Assembly: GCA_963739595.1 (NCBI GenBank)
Contig: CAVUBA010000031.1
Coordinates: forward strand, 7,375 to 71,374
Direction of reading: 5' to 3'
Length of the DNA: 64,000 nt
Origin: an uncultured Thermoleophilia bacterium
GTDB taxonomy: Bacteria > Actinomycetota > Thermoleophilia > UBA2241
Made by a program: the position numbers and the translations under genes
Shown: piece by piece, positions 59,572-60,962 of the stretch
Layout of the letters: each line of letters begins with the position of its first letter
How positions within the stretch are numbered: position 1 is the stretch's first letter
The notes under the pieces: model-generated
The model's input: the letters and a program-made list of their open reading frames with translations, nothing else
What the model was told of the DNA's origin: nothing
Database searches by the model: none

Positions 59572-60962
59572 TTGGAGCCCAGGATCCCCACTCGCATGGG
59601 TGATGGGTCGCTCGTCGAGATGACCCGCTCCGAGATCAAGGCCGATCTCGAAGAAGGCACCCGGATCGCGGCCAAGAAGGCCAAGGTCGACGTCCTCACG
59701 CAGGACGAGCTCGACCACCTGCTCGACATCTACGCATCGGCCGCGCGCTTCACCGCGGTCGACATCGGCGAAGAGGTCGTGCTCAGCAACGACGGCACCG
59801 GGACCAAGCACATCGGCAACCGCGTGCAGGACCTGCAGAGCTACGAGACGCTGCTCGGCGTCGACATCCCCGAGCTGTGGCAGGCCGACTACTCCTACAA
59901 GGCCGTCAAGACCAACGTGGCCCACGAGGGCCAGAGCATGAAGATCGCGCAGGCGCTGCTCACCAACCCGGTGCAGTACGGCGCCATGCCCGACCTGGGC
60001 CGCTACTCGAAGCCTGACGGCCCCATCCCCAACTGGTCCGAGCTGCTGCCGATGGGCAAGATCGACGAGGCGCGCGACGCCCAGGTCGAGGCCTGCGCGA
60101 TGCTGGTCGAGGACATCAACTTCGTCGCCGACGCCATGGTCGAGGCCGGCGCCGACGGCATCGACATGGACACGACGGGGGCGGCGGGCGACGCCGACTT
60201 CCTCGCCGCCCTCACCGCCTGCCGCATGCTGCGCGAGAAGTACCCGTGGCTGGGCATCGAGATCGGCATGGCGAGCGAGTTCGTCCTCGGCATGCACGGC
60301 CAGCTCGAGTTCGACGGCGAGCGCCTCGCCGGCATGTGGCCCAAGAAGCAGCTCGAGATGGTCACCGCGGCCGGCGCCAGCATCTACGGCCCGGCCGTCA
60401 ACATCAACACCGGCAAGTCGACCGCCTGGAACATCGCCCGGGCGATCACCTTCATCAAGCCGGCCGCCGAGGTCGCCACGATCCCGGTCCACGTCAACGT
60501 GGGCATGGGCGTCGGCGGCGTCCCGACGTGCCTGTTCCCGCCCGCCGACGCGACGATCGCGGGCCAGCAAGGCCTTCGTCGAGATCCTCAAGATCGACGG
60601 CTACTAGGTGGGCACGGGCGACCCTCTCGGCATGGAGGGAGCCCACACGCAGGCGTCCGGCATGGGCGGTATGCGGGCGGCGGGAGATCTCGTCGCTCGG
60701 ATGCAGATGACCAGGCGTATGCGTCTCAAGGAAGCCAAGCAGTACGTGGCCGGCAAGCTCGGCTGCACCACGCGCGACCTTTCCGATCCGGTCGCCATGG
60801 AGACCATCCGGCAGGACCACGGCCTCGGCCTTGCTCAGCATGACCTCCTCCACGCATCCGGCGCTGCCGGGCATGATGGAGGCCAAGTTCAACATCAGCA
60901 AGCTGCTCGACATCCCGATCAACTCGGTCGAGCGGTTCAAGGAGCGCACCTCGGGCTACTGA
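59572..60962 (+). CDS. mtbB: Dimethylamine methyltransferase MtbB homolog, copy 2; in-frame TAG at 60605-60607 at the pyrrolysine position; also frame disruptions near 60556 and 60830
   Basis: Same motif series as copy 1 (roughly two-thirds identical by eye). [17 protein letters not shown] closely matches archaeal VDGI-Pyl-IGVGDPLGM. Continuation [31 protein letters not shown] and the tail MMEAKFNISKLLDIPINSVERF read through to TGA 60960-60962. TTG 59572 lies 8 nt after GGAGG (the ORF track starts at 59563). Confidence 0.8.

Follow-up and report, generated by a model that had tools for sequence, protein, structure and literature searches.

The second of two mtbB genes in a 64,000-nucleotide stretch of contig CAVUBA010000031.1, from an uncultured soil bacterium of the Thermoleophilia, is held here, at a probability of roughly 0.85, to be a genuine pyrrolysine-encoding gene for dimethylamine:corrinoid methyltransferase (MtbB) and a member of a conserved old pair of paralogs, the breaks that interrupt the reading frames of both genes being insertion errors of the assembly. 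The whole stretch, which has a GC content of 70%, is referred to as the window, and the two genes are called copy 1 and copy 2 in their order along the plus strand. An earlier reading of copy 2, made from the letters alone and here called the sequence-only reading, had drawn attention to an amber codon, TAG, within the gene. The parts of the two genes on which the argument turns are as follows.

59559 to 59563, plus strand: GGAGG ribosome-binding site of copy 2, read from the sequence
59566, plus strand: alternative ATG start of copy 2, read from the sequence
59572 to 60962, plus strand: mtbB copy 2, 1391 nucleotides as assembled, 1389 (462 codons and a stop) without the two extra bases
59572 to 59574, plus strand: TTG start of copy 2, 8 nucleotides 3' of the GGAGG; the homologs of 344 amino acids begin at the equivalent codon, with MEPRIPTRM
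60556, plus strand: extra base A (ACG-A-TCG, in the context GCGACG-A-TCGCGG), a +1 frame break 16 codons 5' of the TAG
60605 to 60607, plus strand: in-frame TAG, the predicted pyrrolysine codon, codon 345 of copy 2, sharing its alignment column with the copy-1 TAG
60833, plus strand: extra base G (CTT-G-CTC, in the context GGCCTT-G-CTCA), a second +1 frame break
60960 to 60962, plus strand: TGA stop of copy 2
56575 to 57958, plus strand: mtbB copy 1, with a single extra base at 56659, its TAG at 57605 to 57607 and a match to PYLIS_2 from 57605 to 57704

As assembled, copy 2 has a length that is no multiple of three; a translation of the interval in a single frame misses the quoted peptide at the TAG, and a three-frame translation spreads the gene over three frames. 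The first holds codons 1 to 328 (59572 to 60555), the second (60557 to 60832) holds the TAG and stays open for 75 codons past it, and the third (60834 to 60962) carries the last 42 codons, with the C-terminus MTSSTHPALPGMMEAKFNISKLLDIPINSVERFKERTSGY followed by TGA. The sequence-only reading had placed the limits of the gene correctly, from TTG start to TGA stop, and had quoted the TAG with the right peptides on either side; its description of the coding sequence after the TAG as following in frame is accurate for 75 codons and fails at the second break, and the gene as one continuous frame is contradicted by the extra bases at 60556 and 60833. Read-through of copy 2 depends on these two frameshifts, which the sequence-only reading left out, being errors of the assembly.

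Once the two bases are removed, the translation of copy 2 scores 546 bits against PF09505, over positions 7 to 462 of a profile of 463, and 419.9 bits against TIGR02368, whose cutoff is 369.1; repaired copy 1 reaches 549 and 419.2 bits with the same two models. Full-length scores above curated cutoffs thus mark copy 2 as MtbB, as judged from the repaired translations. A sequence search of the PDB found no solved MtbB structure.

In a pairwise alignment the two copies share 57.6% of their amino acids (265/460), and their TAGs fall in a common column, 344, so that the claim of a homologous position in both holds. Nucleotide identity is about 0.71 on the 5' side of the TAG and about 0.62 on the 3' side; the earlier estimate of about two-thirds identity is therefore apt for the nucleotides and too high for the proteins. 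Each copy has orthologs of its own across Thermoleophilia metagenome-assembled genomes (MAGs), copy 1 at 37 loci and copy 2 at 65, and the duplication must for this reason be old. On sequence comparison the two copies are a conserved pair of old paralogs, and copy 2 is no recent duplicate, as had been proposed.

The relatives used for comparison come from a scan of species-representative genomes, which yielded 79 loci, nearly all from uncultured Thermoleophilia or Actinomycetota MAGs and many with Flye-style 'contig_N' names; the related loci or contigs retrieved are numbered L001, L013 and so on. The closest is L013 (MFD05442.bin.2.93), at about 97.5% nucleotide identity to copy 2 and 94.7% to copy 1, and the bog_752 (L037), palsa_645/647 and fen_672 MAGs are also among the relatives, at 83 to 85% nucleotide identity to copy 2. 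Among the hits of a protein search are more than 60 close homologs (83 to 94% identity) of 344 to 346 residues that end exactly at the TAG, together with a few longer ones that continue in the wrong frame from varied points.

The case for assembly errors begins with these relatives. Repaired copy 2 aligns without a gap to its ten closest relatives, at 93.2 to 97.6% nucleotide identity, and the extra bases at 60556 and 60833 occur in none of the ten, which include L013 and L002; the frame broken at two sites in assembled copy 2 runs uninterrupted from start to stop in all of them. Likewise, the extra base at 56659 in copy 1 is missing from L013. Moreover, the window contains at least nine other single-base frame breaks outside the mtbB genes, at the following sites.

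About 2990 to 3040, 3660 to 3680, 9510 to 9520, 26.7 kb, 29.3 to 31.0 kb (two), about 45255, 53351 and 55632: frame-break sites outside mtbB

Among the genes affected, a HAD hydrolase gene has an extra T at 53351, and a base missing from ligA at 55632 leaves the BRCT domain out of frame with the rest of the protein. In FhaA and FhaB the N-terminus and the FHA domain lie in different frames, the last two PASTA domains of PknB are frame-shifted, the two domains of a GT4/GT1 glycosyltransferase do not share a frame, an RlmD/TrmA-like gene runs through three frames with two breaks, and hspR is split. Private indels also occur in L013 and other MAGs, where they hit EAL, GGDEF and mtbB genes and are mostly insertions of one nucleotide at scattered positions; they affect 12 of the 65 orthologs of copy 2 and 7 of the 37 orthologs of copy 1. 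Throughout its length the window resembles a long-read assembly that has not been polished, and the frame breaks in mtbB are, from the sequence comparisons, most likely errors in the consensus of a metagenome assembly of the error-prone, long-read type rather than decay.

Several observations weigh against the reading of copy 2 given at the outset. As assembled, the TAG of copy 2 is out of frame with the start, and a full-length protein could not be made from the gene. There are 3 breaks in 2.8 kb of mtbB and 2 in the roughly 7.3 kb of flank that could be compared well, a difference with a Poisson P of about 0.04 that is to be read with an incomplete background count in mind. An unrelated assembly, L001, has a one-nucleotide insertion no more than 3 nucleotides from the site at 60556, which is treated here as a coincidence or as the result of a hard-to-call context. 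Finally, no pylT, pylS, pylBCD or corrinoid gene lies within the 64 kb window.

One-nucleotide insertions within a few to about 20 nucleotides of the break site before the TAG occur in independent assemblies (in the copy-2 ortholog of L001 the site is at 3860 to 3875, and copy 1 of L009 is a further case), and insertions near codon 29 are seen in window copy 1, L009 and L001. This probably reflects a sequence context that is hard to call.

Decay of the genes is one alternative. If the frameshifts were real, one or both mtbB copies would have become pseudogenes very recently, and conservation of the TAG and of the sequence downstream of it would reflect ancestry only; the three breaks as assembled, nominally denser in mtbB than in flanking genes, would fit, as would the window-private substitutions in copy 2, of which four are nonsynonymous and two synonymous. 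One window-private substitution lies 5 nucleotides from the insertion at 60833. Nevertheless, six private substitutions are too few to speak for relaxed selection and are equally compatible with consensus errors, and all three insertions are private when set against relatives at 94.7 to 97.6% nucleotide identity. The like breaks in ligA, pknB, fhaA/B, hspR and the rlmD-like gene would, moreover, require an implausible genome-wide decay, and in other MAGs assembled in this style private indels, again mostly single-nucleotide insertions, occur at random sites. We consider such decay improbable.

With the assembly-error interpretation retained, the TAG itself can be considered. The codon at this site is TAG in all 66 copy-2 orthologs, in all 38 copy-1 orthologs and in 144 of 144 homologs overall, a set that takes in further paralogs and Firmicutes sequences. 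An ordinary stop would be expected to drift among TAA, TGA and TAG, and this invariance argues that the codon is no ordinary stop; the same count upholds the view that it is neither a nonsense mutation nor a base-calling error. For 53 pairs of orthologs, the NG86 ratio of nonsynonymous to synonymous substitution rates (dN/dS) has median values of 0.236 before the TAG and 0.268 after it, the individual values after the TAG ranging from 0.08 to 0.43. Similarly, the fractions of variable columns at codon positions 1, 2 and 3 are 0.44, 0.33 and 0.88 before the TAG and 0.50, 0.37 and 0.86 after it. The sequence 3' of the TAG is under purifying selection, and the selection on read-through for which the sequence-only reading had argued is borne out by an ortholog ratio of 0.27 after the codon as against 0.24 before it.

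The sequence-only reading had proposed that dN/dS be compared between the two paralogs on either side of the TAG. That comparison gives 0.79 before the codon and 0.59 after it and does not discriminate, because a GC content of about 95% at third codon positions compresses dS and the upstream part, which is translated in any case, itself has a ratio of about 0.8; for this reason the comparison among orthologs was used instead.

A second alternative is that the TAG is an ordinary stop which leaves a truncated protein of 344 amino acids and a separate downstream open reading frame of about 110, as automatic annotation has it. Gene callers do split every homolog at the TAG, and TAG is a common stop in the window, where it ends about one fifth of the confidently called genes, including dnaK (42691 to 42693), clpB, rodA, mgtE and surE. 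However, no start codon is conserved in the segment 3' of the TAG, which is directly continuous in frame with the upstream part, belongs to the single-domain PF09505 and TIGR02368 models, and is as constrained as the upstream part. Together with an invariance of 144 in 144 and the complete pyrrolysine machinery found in the clade (see below), this makes an ordinary stop very improbable. Another in-frame TAG was considered on the minus strand, between a PHP-domain gene (33011 to 33673) and a YjbQ-like gene (32612 to 33010); it was rejected as a candidate, being an ordinary stop with an ATG 9 nucleotides later. In other pyrrolysine-using bacteria UAG is ambiguous rather than reassigned, and it must be ambiguous here as well, since TAG also ends about a fifth of the confident window genes.

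That the frame breaks might be programmed +1 ribosomal frameshift sites, acting in combination with UAG recoding, is a notion to which the L001 insertion within 3 nucleotides of 60556 and the recurrent insertions near codon 29 (window copy 1, L009 and L001) could lend some colour, but it was rejected, along with that of a frameshift hot spot, and is given next to no credence, since the frame is uninterrupted at every such site in more than 50 intact orthologs, the inserted bases and the sequences around them are not alike (window ACG-A-TCG, L001 ACG-C-AGC, L009 CCG-C-CCGG), no slippery or stall motif is present and the other indels are scattered across MAGs.

The reading of copy 2 as a pyrrolysine gene also requires a means of decoding. 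The window has three tRNA genes (Leu, Lys and Thr), no tRNA-Pyl stands beside mtbB at 60 related loci, where there is tRNA-Thr only, and no CUCUAAA anticodon-loop motif was found in the first 12 kb of L054, a Thermoleophilia MAG locus whose first 12 kb span both pylSc and an mtbB ortholog. In L054 the PylSc gene lies 8 kb from the copy-2 ortholog, which is 80% identical to copy 2 in nucleotides, and its product scores 322 bits against TIGR02367 (cutoff 178) and is 54.6% identical to PylSc of Desulfitobacterium hafniense (PDB 2ZNI and 3DSQ). Used as a query, the L054 protein has at least 120 homologs at 78% identity or more among the matches listed; for several, NCBI gives the name PylS large subunit, with a Thermoleophilia or Actinobacteria MAG as the source, and many of the close ones carry the label '[Thermoleophilia bacterium]'.

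Three further contigs, L082, L083 and L085, each carry PylSc together with a tRNA-Pyl that has the CUA anticodon. In L085 the equivalog models give 448 bits for pylB (cutoff 348), 331 for pylC (248), 206 for pylD (150) and 127 for PylSn (51), and a pyl-type corrinoid protein is above its curated equivalog cutoff as well. The genes at 10001 to 17437 of L085, in an order also found in L082 and L083, are pylB, pylC, pylD and tRNA-Pyl on one strand, and the locus continues with a Germane-domain gene, pylSn, a radical SAM gene, the pyl-type corrinoid gene and pylSc. The corrinoid gene adjoins pylSc in L054 too. In L005, L006, L008, L010 and L014 a B12-binding corrinoid gene lies 5 to 7 kb 3' of copy 2 (at about 16 to 18 kb), a distance that would fall beyond the window end; its product is the likely methyl acceptor of MtbB. 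Judged by these gene sets, the clade has the full pyrrolysine trait, and by analogy with its relatives the window's own genome would be expected to decode pyrrolysine.

By analogy with the established pyrrolysine system, decoding may be pictured as follows. The UAG at 60605 would be read by an amber-suppressor tRNA-Pyl(CUA), charged with pyrrolysine, the product of PylB, PylC and PylD, by a split synthetase of PylSn and PylSc, the genes presumably lying elsewhere in the genome. Such decoding would compete with release factor 1, because TAG is also the ordinary stop of about a fifth of the window genes. In the full-length product, about 462 residues long, pyrrolysine would sit in the active site, and the enzyme would take a methyl group from dimethylamine and pass it to a cognate corrinoid protein, the gene for which is 5 to 7 kb downstream in close relatives, while a hairpin 70 to 95 nucleotides past the UAG may modulate decoding. 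The presence of the pyl genes in the window's genome, the activity of the enzyme and any role of the hairpin are likewise projected from relatives and known systems.

The hairpin coincides with part of an RNA model, and the features concerned are these.

60605 to 60704, plus strand: match to Rfam RF02509 (PYLIS_2, mtbB) in copy 2, beginning on the UAG, 68.2 bits (gathering score 36)
60674 to 60699, plus strand: conserved mRNA hairpin of copy 2, +70 to +95 from the U of the UAG, over the codons R-A-A-G-D-L-V-A-R
57674 to 57699, plus strand: conserved mRNA hairpin of copy 1, 70 to 95 nucleotides after the UAG

In copy 1 the PYLIS_2 match, which also begins on the UAG, scores 42.4 bits. Theil Have et al. 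2013 (PMC3639795) put forward the consensus structure that follows the mtbB UAG, and PYLIS has been described in the literature as non-essential. The 5' helix of the model (helix 1) has 8 non-canonical pairs in copy 2 and is not formed, and the score of copy 2 is for this reason regarded as largely driven by sequence, that is, by coding conservation. The hairpin is the counterpart of the 3' helix and is predicted for copy 1 as well as for copy 2. In a set of 104 distinct mtbB sequences its partners pair in 86% of cells, as against 29 to 42% when they are slid, and its covariation score is 0.174 as against 0.058 in shuffles, none of 500 shuffles reaching the observed value. At three pairs of third codon positions both sides change, with C-G and G-C in 58 and 25, 44 and 38, and 18 and 39 sequences, counts that are inflated by related sequences. 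The hairpin is supported by covariation at synonymous sites. That it is a functional recoding or regulatory element which favours pyrrolysine insertion over termination is suggested by these sequence patterns only tentatively, and on balance we think it unlikely. If true, it would make the hairpin a working bacterial counterpart of the disputed PYLIS, which would matter in an organism that closes about a fifth of its genes with TAG.

The nearest known parallel is found in Methanosarcina barkeri, which has several dimethylamine methyltransferase paralogs, MtbB1, MtbB2 and MtbB3, each with one read-through amber codon that encodes pyrrolysine; its mtbB set is the basis of both PF09505 and TIGR02368. 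The likeness extends to full-length membership of the same family, a single UAG at the homologous position, diverged paralogs that all keep the UAG and a region after the UAG that matches the mtbB PYLIS_2 family. In contrast, the host here is a bacterium (Actinomycetota, Thermoleophilia, about 70% GC) and not a methanogen, the clade has a synthetase of the split bacterial type, PylSn and PylSc, and the genes stand among housekeeping genes (ligA, tRNA-Thr and an ABC transporter) rather than beside mtbC. By analogy, the methyl acceptor beyond the corrinoid protein is presumably not coenzyme M.

For Firmicutes a compact pylT-pylSc-pylBCD-pylSn cluster is usually described. The Thermoleophilia share with the Firmicutes and Deltaproteobacteria systems, such as that of D. 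hafniense, the split synthetase, pylBCD and the continued use of TAG as a common stop, whereas their pyl loci are looser than the compact cluster, with unrelated genes interspersed. With respect to the Rfam PYLIS_2 family, both copies score above the gathering threshold, start on the UAG and have the covarying hairpin as the 3' helix; they depart from it in the 5' helix, which does not form in copy 2.

Among bacteria, the closest precedent is the report of Ellenbogen et al. 2023 (PMC10805028), in the portion drawn on here, that Actinobacteriota MAGs at Stordalen Mire show expression of mttB and mtbB that encode pyrrolysine and that the genus Bog-752 is among the most active methylotrophs at that site. 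That portion concerns the same gene family and phylum, with genes recognised by their truncation at the amber codon, and it contains no report of paired paralogs, a pyl gene cluster or hairpin covariation; the window represents a different species-level lineage. A review counted PylRS in 'two Actinobacteria' (PMC11764691). The in-frame UAG in multiple mtbB paralogs (in Methanosarcina) and pyrrolysine-encoding mtbB in Actinobacteriota are thus already known. To these we add the conserved paralog pair, a clade-wide pyl set with its gene order, the covariation of the hairpin and the finding that the copy is misassembled rather than decayed, each at the strength given above.

The surroundings of the pair are partly conserved. 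Two genes lie between the copies.

58013 to 59173, minus strand: D-Ala-D-Ala carboxypeptidase gene (Peptidase_S11)
59228 to 59303, plus strand: tRNA-Thr(UGU), whose location is kept in relatives and which has no part in pyrrolysine decoding

The Peptidase_S11 gene (interval 57971 to 59217) is not at the equivalent place in L013, relative to which it is an insertion, and is at the same place in L001; in L013 the order is copy 1, tRNA-Thr and copy 2, directly adjoining. Directly 3' of copy 2, from 61181 to 63279 and onward, are genes for ABC_sub_bind (PF04392) and permease proteins, whose synteny extends to L001, L002 and L013; they could represent a transporter tied to methylamine use. L002, a related MAG, has a syntenic intact mtbB pair, with gene calls of 345 and 101 and of 344 and 108 residues, with EAL, GGDEF, SurE, HAD and LigA genes on its 5' side and an ABC transporter on its 3' side.

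In L001, at 8398 to 12916, pieces of MTTB-family genes (330 and 81, and 327 and 139 residues) flank an amino-acid permease gene; they are consistent with pyrrolysine-type mttB split at UAG or with further assembly errors. Elsewhere in the window, the region from 36200 to 39400 has a weak codon-position GC signal and includes, at 37004 to 37990 on the minus strand, a gene for a multihaem cytochrome c with several CXXCH motifs.

For sequence analysis, two points follow. The window and many related long-read MAGs contain about one single-base indel per few kilobases, so that pyrrolysine genes are doubly fragmented, by the UAG and by indel errors, and are consequently called as pseudogenes or fragments by automatic pipelines. 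Pairwise dN/dS between high-GC paralogs is, moreover, a poor test. The results change little for the biology of pyrrolysine itself and are of modest ecological value. The paired TAG-containing mtbB genes and a complete pyl set are widespread in Thermoleophilia MAGs from soil and peat, which points to bacterial use of dimethylamine in competition with methylotrophic methanogens.

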